Shown here: one piece after another, positions 24,618 to 41,201 of the stretch | Layout: each line of letters opens with the position of its first letter | How positions within the stretch are numbered: the first letter of the stretch is position 1 | Assembly (NCBI GenBank): GCA_016840855.1 | Contig: JAEORO010000069.1 | Location: forward strand, 17,825-81,824 | Reading direction: 5' to 3' | Source of the DNA: Candidatus Thorarchaeota archaeon | GTDB lineage: Archaea > Asgardarchaeota > Thorarchaeia > Thorarchaeales > Thorarchaeaceae | Length of the DNA stretch: 64,000 nt | Position numbers and translations under genes: made by a program | The notes under the pieces: model-generated | Database searches by the model: none | Seen by the model: only the letters and a program-made list of their open reading frames with translations | What the model was told of the DNA's origin: nothing

Positions 24618-26039
24618 TTGGATAAGACGATAGTGGAAGAACTATCAAAGATTGTTGGTGAAGAATATATCTCTACGAGAAGAGATGTACTTCTTGCTTA
24701 TTCCACTTCTGCGTCAATGAGTTATGATACTGTAATGCCAAGTGCAGTAGTCAGACCAGGAACGACAGAAGAAGTATCAAGAGTTCTAAAAGTAGCAAAC
24801 AAATACAAGATTCCCGTGACACCAAGATCTGGTGGTTCAAGTCTCCAAGGTGAAGTCATTCCAGAAGCAGATAGTCTAGTAGTCGAACTTTTGAGACTTG
24901 ATGATATTGTCTTGTATAAGGATCTACGGTCAGTTACAGTTGGAGCAGGTGTTACTTTTGGTGCCTTAGATAAGTATCTGAATGAACATGACCTCTGGGT
25001 TCCGTTCTATCCAGGATCTTCTTTGGTTGCAACATATGCAGGAAATGTTGCTGTAAATGGAGCAGGGTTTGGGTCAGGAGTCTTTGGATGTATAGCAGAA
25101 CTCGTGATGGGGCTTGAAGTTGTTCTACCAGATGGAACTATTATCCAAACAGGTTCTGAAGCGAATCCTAACTCACCAGGACCCTTCCTGCGGTATGCCT
25201 TTGGTCCAGACCTCACGGGTCTTTTCATAGGGTCTCTTGGTAGCTTTGGAATCATCACAAAGGTCTCTCTGAAGACTCATAAAAGAATGAGATTCTTTGA
25301 TTATAACACATATGGGTTCGACGAAGTTGAGAATGCAGAGAGATTCTTGTTAGAGTTGAAAGAGAACGAGATCAATGCTATTTGGATGGCTCTTTATGAG
25401 GGTAGTATTCTTGATTTCTTTCTTGATATGGTAGGTGAAGAGTATGGTGTTCCAGAATATGATTGGCCAAAGTTCACTGTGTCTGTGGCTATAGGACGAG
25501 TAAGGATAGATCAACTCAAGAGTGATATGAGAGCTGCAAAATCCGTTTGCGAACAATTAGGTGGACATGTCATCGGAATCAAGGAACTACCTAAGAACGA
25601 GTGGGAGGACCGCATGAGAGAGCTTGCAAGGTCTTCATATGTTCATGGTTGGCACTGGCGAATCCTTTACCATCACCAAACGCCTATCAATTGGCACAAA
25701 TCAGTAGAATCTTTGTGGTCAGTTATGGATGAGTATGGTGTCCTTGGACACACAGCAGGGTTCCAATCAGGGCATGCTAGCTACAACTTATATCCGCAGC
25801 TATATTTCGACCCGCAGGATAAGGAGGAGGAAATGAAAGTCAAAGAGGCTCACAGAGACCTCTGTCACCGACTTTTCAAAACAGGAGCAGTACCTTTCAA
25901 GCTGGCAAGATACTGGGTAGATGGAATTTCTGAGATGGACAGTTATCTCCAATTTTTAAACGAAATGAAGAGGAATGTTGATTCAAATGAGATTCTGAAT
26001 CCAGGAATTCTGCCAAAACCGAAGGGAGGGGAAAACTAG
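24618..26039 (+). CDS. FAD-binding oxidoreductase (VAO/GlcD superfamily), paralog 1
   Basis: PRSGGSSL.G, GLEVVLPDG, GPDLTGLFIGSLGSFGIIT, D.NEILNPG. Confidence 0.9.
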   Translation: MDKTIVEELSKIVGEEYISTRRDVLLAYSTSASMSYDTVMPSAVVRPGTTEEVSRVLKVANKYKIPVTPRSGGSSLQGEVIPEADSLVVELLRLDDIVLYKDLRSVTVGAGVTFGALDKYLNEHDLWVPFYPGSSLVATYAGNVAVNGAGFGSGVFGCIAELVMGLEVVLPDGTIIQTGSEANPNSPGPFLRYAFGPDLTGLFIGSLGSFGIITKVSLKTHKRMRFFDYNTYGFDEVENAERFLLELKENEINAIWMALYEGSILDFFLDMVGEEYGVPEYDWPKFTVSVAIGRVRIDQLKSDMRAAKSVCEQLGGHVIGIKELPKNEWEDRMRELARSSYVHGWHWRILYHHQTPINWHKSVESLWSVMDEYGVLGHTAGFQSGHASYNLYPQLYFDPQDKEEEMKVKEAHRDLCHRLFKTGAVPFKLARYWVDGISEMDSYLQFLNEMKRNVDSNEILNPGILPKPKGGEN

Positions 26040-27446
26040 ATGGATGCGAAAATAGTTGCTGGTTTCGAGGAGATTGTAGGTAAAGAATTCGTGTCCACAA
26101 AAGCAGATGTGCTACTCACTTATTCTCAAACAGCATCTATGGCTGCAGATCCAGTTATTCCTGAATTGGTTATTCGTCCAGCGAATACAGAGCAGGTTTC
26201 CAAAATACTGATGCTAGCGAACGAGCACAAGATACCAGTAGTTCCAAGATCGGGTGGTTCAAGTCTGCAACAGGAAGCTATACCAAAACCAGGTTCAATT
26301 GTCATAGAACTCCTGCGGTTAACAGAAATTAAACTCTACAAAGACCTCCGATCAGTAGCCGTAGGTGCTGGAATTACCTATGGTGAATTGGATAAATTCC
26401 TTAGCAAGCATGATCTTTTTTTGCCTGTGTGCCCGGAATCTGCGCTTGTCTGTACAGTCGCAGGGAATATTGCAGTAAATGGCGCAGGACCTGGCTCAAG
26501 CCTGTATGGATGTACTGGGGAGATGGTTCTTGGACTTGAAGTTGTTTTGCCTAACGGTTCGATTATCCAAACAGGCTCTGAAGCCAATCCTTATGCTCCA
26601 GGACCATTTATTAGATATGCATTTGGCTCAGACATCACAGGTCTCTTCATTGGCTCACTTGGCAGTTTTGGTATTATCACAAGAGCATCTATGAAGATAT
26701 TCAGACGACCAAAATATCTAGATTATAATTTGTACGGATTTGATACTGCAGAGCAAGCAGAACAATTTCTGGACGAGATAAAACAGAATGATATTAGCGG
26801 CCTTTTTACCTCAATATATTCTGGTGAGGTTCTTAGTTTATTTTGGGACTTATTGGCAGAGGAGTTTGGTTACCCAACCATTGAATTTCAGAATCGGTCA
26901 GTATCGATGACAATTGGCAGAAATCGTGAAGACTTAGTGAAGAGTGATGCTAAACTTGCGTCTGAAATCTGCAAGAGTCTTGGAGGAAGGGTTTTGGATG
27001 CGAAGGAACTTATTCATTTTGAATGGGAAGGTCGTCTATGGAATTTTGTGAGAGCTTGCTATGCTCACGGATGGCACTGGCGAACAATATACCACCATCA
27101 AGCTCCTAGAAATTCCCACAAATCAGTTGATCTAATCATGGAAGCGATGGACCGGTATGGGTTCATGGGACACACTGCTGGTTTTCAAACTGGACATTCT
27201 TCTATGAACATGTATCCTCACATGTACTTTGATCCACAAGATAAAGAGGAAGAGATGAAAGTGCGTAATGCTCACAAAGAACTTGCCAAATCCCTCTTCA
27301 AATCTGGTGCAGTGCCCTTCAAACTTGCTGAGTATTGGAAAGATGCGATTGAAGACATGGATGATTATATGACATTTCTCAAGTTAATCAAGCATACAAT
27401 TGACCCGAATAACATAATGAATCCTAGAGTACTTGGAGGAATCTAG
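26040..27446 (+). CDS. FAD-binding oxidoreductase (VAO/GlcD superfamily), paralog 2
   Basis: Same motifs; clearly a tandem paralog of 24618-26039 (shared HGWHWR..YHHQ, GHTAGFQ.GH, YFDPQDKEEEMKV). Confidence 0.9.
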   Translation: MDAKIVAGFEEIVGKEFVSTKADVLLTYSQTASMAADPVIPELVIRPANTEQVSKILMLANEHKIPVVPRSGGSSLQQEAIPKPGSIVIELLRLTEIKLYKDLRSVAVGAGITYGELDKFLSKHDLFLPVCPESALVCTVAGNIAVNGAGPGSSLYGCTGEMVLGLEVVLPNGSIIQTGSEANPYAPGPFIRYAFGSDITGLFIGSLGSFGIITRASMKIFRRPKYLDYNLYGFDTAEQAEQFLDEIKQNDISGLFTSIYSGEVLSLFWDLLAEEFGYPTIEFQNRSVSMTIGRNREDLVKSDAKLASEICKSLGGRVLDAKELIHFEWEGRLWNFVRACYAHGWHWRTIYHHQAPRNSHKSVDLIMEAMDRYGFMGHTAGFQTGHSSMNMYPHMYFDPQDKEEEMKVRNAHKELAKSLFKSGAVPFKLAEYWKDAIEDMDDYMTFLKLIKHTIDPNNIMNPRVLGGI

Positions 27447-27448
27447 TA

Positions 27449-28609
27449 ATGACAGAGATTGACCTCGATGACCTCATTGAGAACCTGATGCAATGCCGAA
27501 GATGCGGGATTTGCAGAAATGCTGTGTATGAAGACAGAGGATTTGATGGAGTCTGTCCAGTCTGGAAAAACTCGTATGGATTTGAAACTAGTTTCATGCG
27601 TGGTAGAATTCAAGTTGCATTAGCTCTCCTTGAGGGCACTCTAGAGAGAACAGCAGAGAATGCTGAAGCACTATTTACTTGCACACTATGTGGGAACTGC
27701 ACTGAAATCTGTGCCGCTGAATTTGATCCAACAGATTGTCTCGAAAAAGTCAGAGAAGTTCTTAATGAAATTCCAAATGATGTTCGGGATGAGCTCACGA
27801 AGAGGATAATGGAATATAACAATCCCTATACAGAGAGTGGTTTAACCAAGCGTGACTGGACTGCAGAAGTTGGTTTTGAAATCCCACTCAAAGGCGAAAT
27901 TCTCTATTATACTGGATGTACTGCAGCAACAAAACTACCAAACATTGCTAAATCAACGGTGAAAATCCTTAAAGCTGCTGGAGTCGATTTTGGAGTCCTC
28001 GCAGACGAGCCATGTTGTGGTAGTGTTATGTTGAGGACTGGGAGAAGAACAGATGCGACTTTAAATGCTGAAAAGTTTGCTGAGAGAATGAGGGATGAAG
28101 GAATCAAAAAAATCGTTGTAACCTGTGCTGGATGTCTTAATACACTGCGAGAAGATTATCCAAAGCTCAAAGTGAATATTCCTGAAGCGAAGCATGTGGT
28201 TGAAGTCCTTCCCAGAATAATCCGAGAGAAGAAACTCAAATTGAAACCTCTTGGCAGAGATATTAAAGTTACATATCACGATCCATGTCATCTCTCCAGA
28301 GCTTTAGGGCTATATGAAGAACCAAGAGATTTAATCAAAATGATTCCAGGTCTACAGCTTGTGGAAATGGAAACCACAAGAGAAACTGCTATGTGCTGTG
28401 GAGCAGGTGGTGGACTTCGTTCTTTTGATTCAGAACTTTCAAAGAGAATAGCAGCTGATAGGGTGAAAAGTGCTCATACAGTAGAAGCAGAAATGATTGT
28501 GACTTCTTGTCCGTTCTGTGAGCATAATCTCAAAGAAGGAGCTAGAAAAATAAACAGCTCTGTGCGTGTAGTTGATGTTGTGGATCTTCTAGCTGAAAGT
28601 CTAGATTGA
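27449..28609 (+). CDS. Fe-S oxidoreductase (GlcF/HdrD-like, CCG domains)
   Basis: CRRCGIC...CP, CTLCGNC.E.C, CCG, CAGC, YHDPCH, CCGAGGG, CPFC. Confidence 0.9.
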   Translation: MTEIDLDDLIENLMQCRRCGICRNAVYEDRGFDGVCPVWKNSYGFETSFMRGRIQVALALLEGTLERTAENAEALFTCTLCGNCTEICAAEFDPTDCLEKVREVLNEIPNDVRDELTKRIMEYNNPYTESGLTKRDWTAEVGFEIPLKGEILYYTGCTAATKLPNIAKSTVKILKAAGVDFGVLADEPCCGSVMLRTGRRTDATLNAEKFAERMRDEGIKKIVVTCAGCLNTLREDYPKLKVNIPEAKHVVEVLPRIIREKKLKLKPLGRDIKVTYHDPCHLSRALGLYEEPRDLIKMIPGLQLVEMETTRETAMCCGAGGGLRSFDSELSKRIAADRVKSAHTVEAEMIVTSCPFCEHNLKEGARKINSSVRVVDVVDLLAESLD

Positions 28610-31981: not shown

Positions 31982-32410
31982 TCAAACTGATACGTGTTCG
32001 ATTACGACTCTTTGAACTCCATCAAGAACCTTGAGAGAACTCTCTAATTCATTTATGTCTGAGCTAAGTTGTCCAGGGTTAAAGTAACACTCGTAGAAAC
32101 ATCTTGTTCCTCGGAGACACACTCCCGTTGAGAATAAGAGATCAACGAGACCTGCTCTTTTGAATATTTGAGAGAGTTTGGTCAAGAAGTCATTTGTGAG
32201 CTTTCCAATCTCAAGACTCAGAAATAATACTTCGTCACTCTCTAAAGGAAATATCTTAATGAGTCGGTCCTTGTGCACTAGCACCATCAGACCTTGACCA
32301 GTTCCCATGGCGTTTTTAAAAGCCTTAGGAAATTTTACGGTTTCACTTTCATCAAAAACTAGTACTTTTCCGGCGGTTGCACCTTCATAGGTTTCGTCTG
32401 ACATCAGCAT
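31982..32410 (-). CDS. Hypothetical protein with possible C-terminal ACT-like domain
   Basis: FL..LSQIF...G.VDLLFSTGVC....C.YE.Y....LE..L..LDGV..V. Start adjusted to the ATG at 32410 or 32404. Confidence 0.65.
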   Translation of the reverse strand: MLMSDETYEGATAGKVLVFDESETVKFPKAFKNAMGTGQGLMVLVHKDRLIKIFPLESDEVLFLSLEIGKLTNDFLTKLSQIFKRAGLVDLLFSTGVCLRGTRCFYECYFNPGQLSSDINELESSLKVLDGVQRVVIEHVSV

Positions 32411-32529
32411 TTGTCTCCGTAGCGAAATCCTGCTGATGTAAGTCCTCAAACTCGTTAATAAGTAAATCTCTACTGTTTGGTCTGATGTGTGGTCCTTTTG
32501 TATTGTAATCAAAAACAATACTTTGACCT

Positions 32530-32802
32530 ATGATGAGGCTGTCAGAAATAGAAAAAGGCCCTTATTATGATATGAGAGAAGTATCAGAATTGAGAATACA
32601 GTATCAATGCGAATATCGCCTGCTTCTGAAACAACAGTTTGGAGAATCTCATTCATCTAAGAGCATTACTGGAACAAAATTACATCAGCGTGTTGCACTT
32701 GTAGATAATAATCAAAATTTCAAAAGAAATGAAATTCAACTTCTGCCTCTATTGGTAATCATACTTACTTTGATTATTGGCATCTTCTGGATCTTCGGGT
32801 GA
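32530..32802 (+). CDS. Small membrane-anchored protein carrying the N-terminal segment of a Cas4-like nuclease
   Basis: VSEL..QYQCEYRL.L.........G.KLH resembles the Cas4 first-Cys and G..hH segment; C-terminal TM LLPLLVIILTLIIGIFWIFG. Confidence 0.65.
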   Translation: MMRLSEIEKGPYYDMREVSELRIQYQCEYRLLLKQQFGESHSSKSITGTKLHQRVALVDNNQNFKRNEIQLLPLLVIILTLIIGIFWIFG

Positions 32803-32806
32803 TTTC

Positions 32807-33463
32807 ATGAGTGATCTGATCAGCCTTCTTATGCTCATGTTATTTCTCTTTGGAATTCTTCTTCTTGTGAGAGATCTAAGAACTGGTTTCATCACAATTG
32901 GAATGAAGATAAAATACGCAAGTCCAGCGCAATTTAGCCTGTCAGAATTTCTCAAAATGGATTCAAGCCAAGAGAGGCTCATTAAGTATTATTACTTCTC
33001 AGAGGAAAATGTGAAGTCATTGGGTCACCGCTATACTGGAAGATTTGATGGAGGAATTCTCCATTGGGAAGAGACTGCAATATTGGATCTTGTAATAGAG
33101 TACAAATTTCCTACATTGTATCTCCCAAAACAGGCAAGGTTAGAGGATGTCTTTCAACTGGAACTCTATGCCCTTGCACTCCATGAATGTGGTATTTCAT
33201 GTTCTTCAACAATTCTTGTAACAATTTACTGTCTTCAAGAGAATGCAGAGAGATGCATGAGTAAGAAATCATTCAGAGACTGCTGGCGATGCAATGCTGG
33301 AAGAAAATTCACAACACGATTCAAGCCTAAGAGAGTGTTGAAAGAACTGAAGAGATTGGATGAAATTTGGTATCATGGGAGAAGACCAAAGCCTACCAAA
33401 GACGCAAATCGCTGTAGGATTTGTCCATATAGCCGCGGTAAGTGCAATTTTTCATCTGTATGA
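32807..33463 (+). CDS. Membrane-anchored Cas4-like PD-(D/E)xK nuclease (catalytic part)
   Basis: N-terminal TM; GRFD, VIEYK, QLELY (QxxxY), C-terminal CRICPYSRGKC; ATG at 32807 after a GGTGA that overlaps the upstream stop. Confidence 0.75.
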   Translation: MSDLISLLMLMLFLFGILLLVRDLRTGFITIGMKIKYASPAQFSLSEFLKMDSSQERLIKYYYFSEENVKSLGHRYTGRFDGGILHWEETAILDLVIEYKFPTLYLPKQARLEDVFQLELYALALHECGISCSSTILVTIYCLQENAERCMSKKSFRDCWRCNAGRKFTTRFKPKRVLKELKRLDEIWYHGRRPKPTKDANRCRICPYSRGKCNFSSV

Positions 33464-33530
33464 ATCTTGATACTAGAGGGATACAGCAACACAGACCTTT
33501 TTTACCTCATAGACTTTACTGAAAATTGCC

Positions 33531-33947
33531 ATGGTTCATTCATTAACAAGACTTCTTACGCATGTGATGACTGCAAAGAGAGACCTCAAACGTGTTTACT
33601 ATACCAGCCGTAACCAAGATGCAAAACTAGATTCAAAGGAACTTGTTGCAGCTACAATTACACTCCAGAAGCTACTTGAAGACCTCATAGCGAAACGTCG
33701 AACAATCAGGGTAGCCAAGAAGATATTGGAGGACAAGAAAGCGGAACTGAATCTTCGTCAGTGGGCAATTGGATTTCCGCGGCGTGTTAGAGATTTCCTC
33801 TCAAAATCAAAGAAGCTAGAACAGCAGCATCTTCGTAAATATCAGCAAGCACTCTTGGAATATATCAATAACATAAGCACAGAACTTACTAAATGGATAG
33901 AGGATATTGAAACTCTAAGAGGAATGCCTCATCCACCAAAGGGATAG
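33531..33947 (+). CDS. Hypothetical basic alpha-helical protein
   Basis: 138-aa ORF with heptad-like L/K/E pattern; no family recognised. Confidence 0.7.
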   Translation: MVHSLTRLLTHVMTAKRDLKRVYYTSRNQDAKLDSKELVAATITLQKLLEDLIAKRRTIRVAKKILEDKKAELNLRQWAIGFPRRVRDFLSKSKKLEQQHLRKYQQALLEYINNISTELTKWIEDIETLRGMPHPPKG

Positions 33948-38645: not shown

Positions 38646-39254
38646 ATGACGCAGAGAATTGATACTTCAGAAACCATATCTGACACAGACACGTCCGATG
38701 GCTTTGAAGGGTACAAGTTTCGTGTGGTCCTACTAGGAGAGGCAGCCGTTGGGAAAACATCGCTTGTAAGGAGATATACTGAGAACGTCTTTGATGAAGA
38801 GTATAAACAGACCATTGGAACTACATTCGCGACAAAAGACATTGATGTGACAGATAGCGAGGGCAGTATTCGTAAGGTTCGTTTGAACGTTTGGGATATG
38901 GGTGGTCAATCAACATACAGAGAACTTCGAAGGCAATTCATGAAAGGTGCGTCAGGTGCCATCATTGTATATGACGTTACACGTCCTGAAACATTCATGG
39001 CAATGAACAATTGGTTTGAATCGTTCAGAGAGGTTTGTCCTGCTTCGCCTGTTATCATTAGTGCTAACAAGATTGACCTCGCCGATCAAAGGATGGTCCC
39101 TCAGGAACCTGGATTGATGCTTCGCGATTGGTTCCAAGCGGAGTATTTTGAAACTTCAGCAAAAACTGGCGACGAGGTAAACAATGTGTTTACTCGTATT
39201 GCAGAGGTTGTTCTGGGAAAGGCTCTATCAGAAGCTAAAGGTCCTTTGATGTAG
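38646..39254 (+). CDS. Rab-like small GTPase (Ras superfamily)
   Basis: G1 GEAAVGKTS, G2 TIG, G3 WDMGGQ, G4 NKID, G5 ETSAK; no C-terminal Cys. Confidence 0.93.
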   Translation: MTQRIDTSETISDTDTSDGFEGYKFRVVLLGEAAVGKTSLVRRYTENVFDEEYKQTIGTTFATKDIDVTDSEGSIRKVRLNVWDMGGQSTYRELRRQFMKGASGAIIVYDVTRPETFMAMNNWFESFREVCPASPVIISANKIDLADQRMVPQEPGLMLRDWFQAEYFETSAKTGDEVNNVFTRIAEVVLGKALSEAKGPLM

Positions 39255-40604: not shown

Positions 40605-41201
40605 GTGATGGAAGACGCTAGCCACATGCTCAAAATGGTCGCTCTAGGTAATGGAGCAGTAGGCAAGACTAGCTGTATTAAGAGATATACGGAAGACAGC
40701 TTTAGCGAACGCTATATAGCTACTATTGGCACAACATTTGCTCTAAAAACAGTAAATACTGTATCACCAAGTGGCAGTACAATTACAGCACGAGTTGTCC
40801 TTTGGGATCTTGCAGGACAACCCACCTACAACGAGCTGAGAAGAAGGTATATGGCCGGCGCTTCAATGGCTATCATAGTGTACGATGTGACTCGACCTCA
40901 GACTTTTTTGGACATTGGTGAGTGGTTCACCAAGTTTATCACTGTGTGTCCAAATGCTGTGGTCGCGGTTGTTGCTAACAAGATTGACCGCGAAGACAGA
41001 TTGGTTCCTCCAGAAGCTGGAAAAATGGTCACGCAATGGTTGGATGTCTTGCACTATGAAACTTCAGCTAAGACGGGTGAAAACATCAACACCCTCTTTA
41101 CTGATTTAGTTCAAAGGGCAGTGGCAAAGCAAGCTGAATTGGGTCAGCTTGATCAATTGTCTGGAACCCAACCACCAAAACCATTCAAGCTAGGCGTCTG
41201 A
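40605..41201 (+). CDS. Rab-like small GTPase, second paralog
   Basis: GNGAVGKTS, TIG, WDLAGQ, NKID, ETSAK. Confidence 0.93.
   Translation: MMEDASHMLKMVALGNGAVGKTSCIKRYTEDSFSERYIATIGTTFALKTVNTVSPSGSTITARVVLWDLAGQPTYNELRRRYMAGASMAIIVYDVTRPQTFLDIGEWFTKFITVCPNAVVAVVANKIDREDRLVPPEAGKMVTQWLDVLHYETSAKTGENINTLFTDLVQRAVAKQAELGQLDQLSGTQPPKPFKLGV

Follow-up and report, generated by a model that had tools for sequence, protein, structure and literature searches.

In a 64,000-nucleotide stretch of a Candidatus Thorarchaeota contig (JAEORO010000069.1), referred to here in its whole length as the window, two adjacent open reading frames (ORF1 and ORF2) were found that together appear to encode one nuclease. 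ORF1 and ORF2 are real, separate genes, and the split between them is not a sequencing artefact, a frameshift or a pseudogene. By profile alignment their products are consecutive parts of one nuclease domain, and a hydrophobic helix flanks the break on each side. We propose, with a probability of roughly 0.7, that a single membrane-anchored PD-(D/E)XK nuclease of the Exo5/Cas4/AddB "iron-staple" type is formed by ORF1 and ORF2 as its two subunits. Iron-staple nucleases (Cas4, Exo5, AddB and Dna2) are known as soluble single chains or domains, in which the cluster pins an N-terminal helix to the C-terminal tail of one polypeptide. Full-text literature searches, which did not cover supplements, where such architectures may be listed, turned up no Cas4/Exo5-family nuclease described as split or anchored in the membrane, and in the text of a Cas4 phylogenomics paper (PMC5704561) the words "transmembrane", "split" and "Exo5" are absent and "membrane" occurs once, in an irrelevant context.

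The features of the locus are given below, in positions of the window; invariance was counted over 20 sequences for ORF1 (about 42-60% overall identity) and over 33 sequences for ORF2.

32494..32502, plus strand: promoter-like motif CCTTTTGTA, TATA-like, about 30-36 nucleotides 5' of the ORF1 start; putative function
32530..32802, plus strand: ORF1, 90 amino acids; N-terminal nuclease piece, then a predicted C-terminal membrane helix (from hhalign and relatives)
32608..32610, plus strand: codon of Cys27 (motif QCEYRL), predicted first Fe-S staple ligand; invariant (20/20)
32671..32685, plus strand: G48-x3-H52 (GTKLH), predicted metal-binding His motif of a RecB-type active site; G48 and H52 invariant (20/20)
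32740..32796, plus strand: predicted transmembrane helix of ORF1 (residues 71-89), a tail anchor that leaves a single C-terminal residue; Kyte-Doolittle mean 2.95 over 19 amino acids
32798..32802, plus strand: GGTGA, Shine-Dalgarno-type, overlapping the ORF1 stop TGA (32800-32802) and 4 nucleotides ahead of the ORF2 ATG
32807..33463, plus strand: ORF2, 218 amino acids; predicted N-terminal membrane helix, nuclease core and C-terminal Cys motif
32813..32869, plus strand: predicted transmembrane helix of ORF2, residues 3-21, an N-terminal anchor; Kyte-Doolittle mean 2.74
33047..33169, plus strand: RecB-type catalytic motifs D81 (GRFD), E98-x-K100 (EYK) and Q117-x3-Y121; invariant (33/33)
33230..33292, plus strand: Cys-rich insert C142-x7-C150-x8-C159-x2-C162; all four Cys invariant (33/33)
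33413..33445, plus strand: C203-x2-C206-x6-C213, the three predicted C-terminal Fe-S staple ligands; invariant (33/33)

The two genes and their junction

The frames of ORF1 and ORF2 differ, with an offset of +1 in the window, and the junction reads GGGTGAtttcATG. An earlier note on this DNA, made from the letters alone, had held the pair to be a true two-gene split and no frameshift, and had asked that the sequence be verified across positions 32790-32810. Contigs of four runs from four studies span 32464-33600 with no letter inserted or deleted, although the window may itself derive from one of these contigs. Relatives of ORF2 were found in a collection of 5.8 billion proteins (73 proteins of 150-285 amino acids), and where named these belong to Thorarchaeota-type Asgard metagenome-assembled genomes (MAGs). 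Directly 5' of ORF2 an ORF1 relative of 88-90 amino acids (42-60% identity) is encoded in 12/12 loci of the genus, and the junction geometry, a stop followed by 4 nucleotides and a start, is the same in all 12, the start being ATG in 11 and TTG in one. A wider junction survey covered 41 loci from 11 genera of the family. An ORF1 match lies directly upstream of ORF2 in 40 of the 41, and a single open frame runs across both in none. Among the 40, the second frame is shifted by +1 in 22 loci and by +2 in 16, and two loci have an offset of 0 together with an in-frame stop; the ORF1 stop is TGA at 38 of 40 junctions, and GGTGA overlaps it at 33 of 40. Since the same architecture is kept with differing frame offsets, a shared frameshift error is excluded and programmed frameshifting is disfavoured. 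The earlier note had asked for a check that other genomes keep the split, and they do.

Two loci of two genera (L038 in genome G042 and L039 in G094) have ORF1 and ORF2 in one frame, parted by a TGA and two to three codons, and there readthrough to a fused chain is conceivable. In another locus (L035, G294:C94:2289-2522) the ORF1 match has an internal TAA, and a stop-to-stop scan recovered positions 32-89 of the hidden Markov model only; it may be a pseudogene or a sequencing error.

The earlier note had also recognised that homologs in the form of single fused ORFs would speak against it, and none were found from either side. In a search for longer proteins that contain ORF1, 0 of 143 candidates were significant, which is weak evidence, and a profile of 33 ORF2 relatives, run against the representatives of 1.84 billion clusters, gave 43 proteins at E<=0.001, of which the 21 with E<=1e-30 are 112-252 amino acids long. 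Database "forms" of ORF2 with 254-285 amino acids were considered as fusions and rejected, their N-terminal extension being the ORF2 frame read upstream across ORF1. Both pieces are conserved side by side and inherited together, and they correspond to successive parts of a relative made as one chain, as is expected of a naturally split enzyme.

In the relatives ORF1 starts at the second ATG, position 32533. For ORF2 the ATG at 32807 is the most likely start, because the relatives are 210-220 amino acids long and a start 4 nucleotides past the ORF1 stop is kept in all 12 loci of the genus. The promoter-like motif before ORF1 has counterparts, of the form (C/G)CTTTT(G/C), at an equal distance of about 30-40 nucleotides in 23/23 related loci for which upstream sequence was printed, and a similar motif stands ahead of the downstream gene of 138 codons; the presence of one before ORF1 and another before the next gene suggests that ORF1-ORF2 is a two-gene transcription unit. 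It was also proposed in the earlier note that a ribosome-binding site overlapping the ORF1 stop couples the two genes by design, and this was supported: the GGTGA of the 33 junctions is also enriched ahead of starts in the window at large, in which it occurs 3-18 nucleotides before the first ATG in 7 of 63 long ORFs, as compared with 0.9+-1.1 in random windows. GGTGA is accordingly the predicted ribosome-binding motif of the window, and through it the start of ORF2 is predicted to be translationally coupled to the ORF1 stop. Use of the Shine-Dalgarno sequence was judged by this enrichment, as the archaeal small-subunit ribosomal RNA model RF01959 gave no match in the window's own genome (G000) or in the relatives G001, G247 and G253, two of which are single-contig assemblies; the control was matched in 14/14 genomes. 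The ribosomal RNA absent from these results may be unassembled, masked or interrupted.

Exo5/Cas4 affinity and the putative shared cluster

Curated family models were compared with both products. ORF2 scores 15.5 bits (E=0.018) against PF12705 (PDDEXK_1), below the gathering cut-off of 22 bits, and 11 of 33 ORF2 family members match this model at E<=0.01. With TIGR00372 (cas4), whose cut-off is 65 bits, its match is confined to the C-terminal 38 residues and scores 17.3 bits. PF01930 (Cas4) gave no match to ORF2, PF09810 (Exo5; cut-off 25 bits) matched neither ORF1 nor ORF2 at E<=1, and nothing meaningful in the curated family libraries matched ORF1. The Cas4 model PDLC01250 of PADLOC, a library without a curated cut-off, matches ORF2 residues 51-139 with E=3.5e-8, and an Atlas search with ORF2 returned bacterial PDDEXK_1 clusters only (score 0.94-0.96) and nothing beyond the superfamily level. 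When the ORF2 profile was run against PDB, the best sequence match was EXO5 (E=0.034).

The next tier of matches to the ORF2 profile, with E from 1e-7 to 1e-4, consists of single-chain archaeal proteins of about 236-268 amino acids (one has 378) without hydrophobic helices, in which the motifs follow one another as Q..CE, G..H, D, ExK, QxxxY and C-x2-C-x5/6-C. All 10 of these unsplit relatives that were examined pass PDDEXK_1 and 5 of the 10 pass the Exo5 model PF09810 (26.7-37.6 bits). By hhalign, the unsplit family is matched at its positions 29-88 by ORF1 residues 14-70 (probability 94%, E=1.2e-7) and at positions 74-256 by ORF2 residues 41-218 (probability 99.4%, E=5.9e-22); residues 71-90 of ORF1 and 1-40 of ORF2 have no counterpart there. 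ORF1 and ORF2 are, by this alignment, consecutive parts of one nuclease domain.

Alignment also relates the individual residues. In ORF1 the segment VSELRIQYQCEYRL is followed by GTKLH and then by the hydrophobic stretch of 19 residues and one last residue. Its C27 stands opposite a conserved Cys in the unsplit relatives and opposite the CEL motif in human EXO5; the counterparts of G48/H52 are an invariant G..H in the unsplit family and GasiH in EXO5. For ORF2, D81, ExK and QxxxY fall on the same motifs in the unsplit family, and C203/C206/C213 fall on its C232/C235/C241 and, in EXO5, on the C-terminal Cys motif. The four predicted staple cysteines are present, invariant, and aligned with those of the unsplit relatives and EXO5, and they are spread over two polypeptides, 1+3. 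The division of the cluster cysteines between the chains had been anticipated in the earlier note, as had the motifs of both ORFs, all of which are present and most invariant.

At the level of structure, the AlphaFold 2 (AF2) model of ORF2 has a mean predicted local distance difference test score (pLDDT) of 81.6. It matches 7mi4_A, the Cas4 of a Cas4-Cas1 fusion, with Z 9.9 (the VIA top match; model 40-218 on chain 54-201) and EXO5 with Z 8.2 (model 43-218 on chain 148-357), and the top match by Foldseek is 8d3l_I (E=2.6e-4). Because these matches begin only at about residues 54 and 148 of the two chains, an N-terminal part of Cas4/EXO5 is missing from ORF2. With D, ExK and QxxxY invariant and a fold that matches the nuclease domains of Cas4, EXO5, MGME1, AdnB and RecB, ORF2 has both the motifs and the fold of the RecB-type superfamily. 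The earlier note had called the enzyme Cas4-like. In sequence, though, Exonuclease V (Exo5) is a closer relative of the family than Cas4 proper is: the match of the unsplit family to human EXO5 has E=4e-16 and takes in both the Cys/His segment at the N-terminus and the C-terminal Cys motif, as compared with E=9e-4 for the Cas4 SSO0001, and the AF2 model of an unsplit relative (pLDDT 88.5) has EXO5 as its best match and SSO0001 as its second. The surroundings are not those of an adaptation Cas4 either, which would be expected beside cas1/cas2 and a CRISPR array. The neighbours are housekeeping genes, no CRISPR-like array was found in the window, where TRF finds two short repeats only, and neither Cas1 (PF01867) nor canonical Cas4 (PF01930) was found in the 92%-complete genome, in agreement with the statement of the earlier note that no array or cas1 is nearby.

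In this nuclease family the cluster is described in PMC3466216 as bound by three C-terminal cysteines and one N-terminal cysteine, the "iron staple", and Sso0001 became insoluble when single cysteines were mutated. In 4IC1 the ligands of the catalytic metal include an upstream His (PMC13621843), and H52 of ORF1 may be the equivalent of that His. As ORF1 holds not only C27 but also the invariant GxxxH, it is probable that both the cluster and the active site are composite across ORF1 and ORF2. When ORF2 is modelled by itself, the two final blocks of ten residues, which contain the Cys tail, have a pLDDT of 48 and 40, as compared with 94, 91 and 93 for the corresponding blocks of the unsplit relative, and this lends indirect support to a need of the tail for the N-terminal piece. 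Besides the staple, C132 of ORF2 is also invariant (33/33), and the four cysteines of the insert look like a separate second metal site (Zn or Fe-S); two unsplit relatives, P0105 and P0117, carry a comparable four-Cys insert at the corresponding position.

Predicted membrane helices, inheritance and competing explanations

The hydrophobic helices on the two sides of the break, to which the earlier note had drawn attention, are kept in the relatives of both proteins (mean 2.5-3.3 over 19 residues), save in two rows with truncated start calls. The ORF1 helix has a hydropathy of 2.55-3.24 in 20/20 relatives, lies at the C-terminal extreme in all of them, as in tail-anchored proteins, and is preceded by K/R residues. 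The ORF2 helix is preceded by 0-6 residues without K/R and followed by 1-5 K/R in nearly all relatives, and almost nothing extends beyond the outer ends of either helix. Based on these flanking charges and the positive-inside rule, the soluble parts of ORF1 and ORF2 would both be placed in the cytoplasm, and the two helices would correspond to the two arms of a single hairpin, severed at the loop on the outside. Conservation within ORF1 is 0.74 for the helix, 0.76 for the head and 0.46 for the linker; P73, G84 and W87 are invariant in the ORF1 helix, and G16 is nearly invariant in that of ORF2. Since a helix as conserved as the head, with invariant P73, G84 and W87, exceeds the needs of a mere anchor, specific helix-helix packing is suggested. 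An ATPase of the ArsA/Get3 family is encoded in the genome, which is uninformative, as the control was matched in 14/14 genomes.

We surveyed 301 genomes of the phylum, 76 of them in the window's own family. ORF2 is present in 65 of the 76, in one copy each, and ORF1 likewise in 65; both genes occur together in 64 genomes, neither in 10 and one alone in two, namely G071, which has an ORF1 remnant only, and G291, in which ORF2 lies at a contig edge. In the 224 other genomes ORF2 gave 4 weak matches only, and true unsplit forms (strong matches) occur in 5 of the 224 Asgard genomes outside the family; the window's own genome has no second member of the family. In the ORF2 tree the split family lies on one branch with 100/100 support, and of the six genera with more than one sample, five are each confined to one side of a branch. 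This topology indicates vertical descent from one split event. The gene order is also kept across the family: a gene for 178 amino acids on the opposite strand, ORF1, ORF2, the gene for 138 amino acids and an aRF1-like gene on the opposite strand. The pair was lost repeatedly within the family. In the genera g17 and g28 the two flanking genes abut, about 100 bp apart, and since no remnant of the pair is left in them, it is dispensable.

Both genes change fast. As the synonymous divergence (dS) is saturated (proportion of synonymous differences, pS, 0.7-0.78), the ratio to it of the nonsynonymous divergence (dN) is rough, and we used the contrast of dN with the neighbours and the finding that dN is far below dS for ORF1 and ORF2. 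Against 11 loci of the genus, dN was 0.33 for ORF1 and 0.29 for ORF2, as compared with 0.06-0.11 for three neighbours, so that amino-acid change in the pair is 3-5 times faster than next to it. A mirror-tree comparison of ORF1 with ORF2 gave r=0.81 and partial r of 0.47-0.62 (21 of 41 loci, those with all four genes at the required coverage).

In the arrangement that we infer, a bicistronic message would be translated with the start of ORF2 coupled to the ORF1 stop by GGTGA. ORF1 would be tail-anchored, its cytoplasmic head of about 65 residues carrying C27 and H52, and ORF2 would be held by its N-terminal helix with the N-terminus outside and with a cytoplasmic body that contains D81, E98, K100, Q117/Y121, the three cluster cysteines and the four-Cys metal site. 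The break falls at what would be a surface loop of the unsplit relatives, the two helices being the halves of a hairpin inserted there. The helices would pair in the membrane and bring the ORF1 head to dock on the ORF2 body, and with docking the 4Fe-4S staple would be complete (1+3 Cys), as probably would the metal-binding active site, so that neither chain alone would be a competent nuclease; the anatomy is compatible with an "assembly-gated" nuclease. Such an enzyme might work on DNA along the membrane's inner face and, by analogy with Exo5/Cas4, thread and degrade single-stranded 5' ends.

Several points weigh against this arrangement. Membrane insertion is predicted from hydropathy and charge only, docking of ORF1 on ORF2 is deduced by homology, and the equivalence of H52 with the His of Cas4 is drawn through chained alignments. 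The partial correlation of ORF1 with ORF2 does not exceed the value for ORF1 and the unrelated 138-residue neighbour (0.55), and is hence not specific. Mobile DNA interrupts ORF1 in two species of the genus g18 (G106 and G218), in which ORF2 is intact. ORF2 has five further invariant cysteines (C132, C142, C150, C159 and C162) that could replace C27 or form a site of their own, and ORF2 might on this ground supply its own fourth Cys. Furthermore, cluster-less mutants of the M. mazei Solo-Cas4 keep nuclease activity according to PMC12501428, so that a missing staple need not inactivate ORF2.

These last points lead to an explanation that we regard as improbable, though the strongest of the competitors, in which ORF2 is a self-sufficient membrane nuclease and ORF1 a dispensable accessory or regulatory N-terminal remnant that modulates it only. 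ORF2 does hold the D, E, K and QxxxY, three staple cysteines and the five others, the active M. mazei mutants set a precedent, and in G106 and G218 ORF2 stands intact beside an interrupted ORF1. A remnant would, however, hardly keep C27, G48 and H52 invariant over 20 sequences of such divergence; ORF1 is under purifying selection and changes at the same rate as ORF2, the two are gained and lost jointly (64 both, 10 neither and two explained exceptions of 76), and the Cys tail is unplaced when ORF2 is modelled alone. The interruptions of ORF1, for their part, look recent, because the ORF2 branches of the two species are short; in G218 the head of ORF1 is still open. In that species (L048, G218:C355 225-9336) an insert of about 8 kb lies just before the ORF1 membrane helix and encodes a 1788-residue ORF without a Pfam family and a 723-residue TnpB/Cas12f-like protein (PF07282, E=6.6e-14), and in G106 (L022, L049) ORF1 borders at about codon 36 on a TnpB end of the same kind, and another contig carries the beginning of ORF1.

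That the helices are no membrane anchors, and instead form a soluble zipper joining two enzyme fragments, seems to us very unlikely. The conserved small and aromatic residues (G84 and W87 of ORF1, G16 of ORF2) do point to specific packing, and insertion is itself a prediction from the letters, but segments of 19-20 residues with a hydropathy of 2.5-3.3 are typical membrane spans, each lies at the extreme end of its chain, and the flanking charges obey the positive-inside rule. Two exposed helices of such hydropathy are unlikely to stay soluble. An artefact, a decaying gene, or a programmed frameshift or readthrough to one fused protein is already contradicted and retains next to no credibility. 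What speaks for it is that the ORFs are adjacent and in different frames, and that in 2 of 40 loci (L038 and L039) they share a frame with one stop and a few codons between. It conflicts with the identical letters in the contigs of the four studies, with a split kept in 40 loci at three frame offsets, with a start codon and mostly GGTGA at the junction, with the low dN of both ORFs relative to dS and with the failure to find a fused relative.

As for the biological role, we consider it doubtful, though worth stating, that the membrane-anchored pair is a gate-keeper whose cluster and active site would form only at the meeting point of a tail-anchored and a signal-anchored subunit in the membrane, so that its activity is confined to the cell periphery, where it would degrade or process entering linear DNA ends (viral, conjugative or environmental) and spare the chromosome, as a CRISPR-independent innate defence or uptake step specific to this Asgard family. 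The 3-5 times faster change, the repeated loss in some genera and the mobile elements in ORF1 of two species would fit such a role, or more generally a conflict-related or otherwise accessory one; the housekeeping neighbourhood and the strict vertical inheritance differ from typical defence islands.

If the two-subunit membrane nuclease is real, it would be a natural experiment on the purpose of the staple, since staple and probably metal site would bridge two separately made membrane-anchored chains. It would also be a nuclease with a cluster shared between subunits, which is rare, and, as far as the searches made here reach, the first of its family to be tethered to the membrane. Archaeal Exo5-like proteins, in this analysis the nearest sequence relatives of eukaryotic EXO5, would thereby be linked to an unexpected cellular location, and the pair is a family-specific, vertically inherited marker for one Asgard family.

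Related systems and neighbouring genes

The unsplit archaeal Exo5/Cas4-like nucleases (P0105, P0107, P0109-P0112, P0115, P0118 and P0121; about 240-270 amino acids, from MAGs of Thermoprotei and Heimdallarchaeota) are named in their sources "Cas4 (RecB family)" or "PD-(D/E)XK nuclease family protein". They have the same motif order as ORF1/ORF2, including G(F/V)(D/S)CS after QxxxY, and the four-Cys insert is common to P0105 and P0117. They are, however, single chains without hydrophobic helices and of sporadic occurrence, whereas the split form is near-universal and syntenic in one family. The surroundings of five unsplit Asgard relatives (L042-L046) were listed, and these loci are short. Like the enzyme predicted for ORF1/ORF2, EXO5 (PF09810; PDB 7LW7-7LWA) is an iron-staple nuclease with 1+3 Cys, but it is a single soluble eukaryotic chain without membrane helices, split or four-Cys insert. 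Cas4 and solo-Cas4 (PF01930, TIGR00372; PDB 4IC1, 7MI4, 8D3L) share the RecB-type fold, the four-Cys arrangement and the catalytic motifs, and ORF1-ORF2, like solo-Cas4, are encoded away from cas genes; unlike Cas4, they fall under the curated cut-offs, are split in two chains and are predicted to be membrane-anchored. With the nuclease domains of AddB, AdnB and Dna2 they would share the staple principle, and the ORF2 fold matches these with Z 5.5-7.6; AddB, Exonuclease V and Dna2 are named as members of the iron-staple family in PMC3466216. Those domains belong to large helicase-nuclease machines, whereas ORF1/ORF2 have no helicase and the staple would bridge two polypeptides.

The gene for 138 amino acids (33531-33947, plus strand) always lies directly after ORF2 and encodes a helical protein. 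It was considered as a third partner and rejected, as it is present in 70 of the 76 family genomes, including nuclease-free ones (g17, 3/3), and has a promoter-like motif of its own: a conserved ACAGACCTTT, followed by T or A and by TACG, lies about 30 nucleotides before its ATG. The protein has no Pfam family, no usable Atlas match and PADLOC matches at chance level only. Outside the family it was found only weakly, with one match of E=9e-9 in the same gene order and two at E of about 8e-4 elsewhere. On the other side of the pair, the ORF of 178 amino acids (31982-32518, minus strand) probably starts later, near 32410, to give a protein of about 142 amino acids; its relatives have 141-162 amino acids, begin just before a conserved YEGATAG segment and are 64-95% identical across the family, and it too has no Pfam family.

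Farther downstream two small GTPases of the Ras/Roc family, which are typical of Asgard archaea, are encoded at 38646-39254 and 40605-41201, both on the plus strand (E=4e-45 and 3e-39). Upstream, at 24618-28609 on the plus strand, two tandem FAD_binding_4 proteins (473 and 468 amino acids) are followed by a CCG/4Fe-4S dicluster protein, an order that resembles a glycolate/lactate oxidase (GlcD/E/F-like) cluster.

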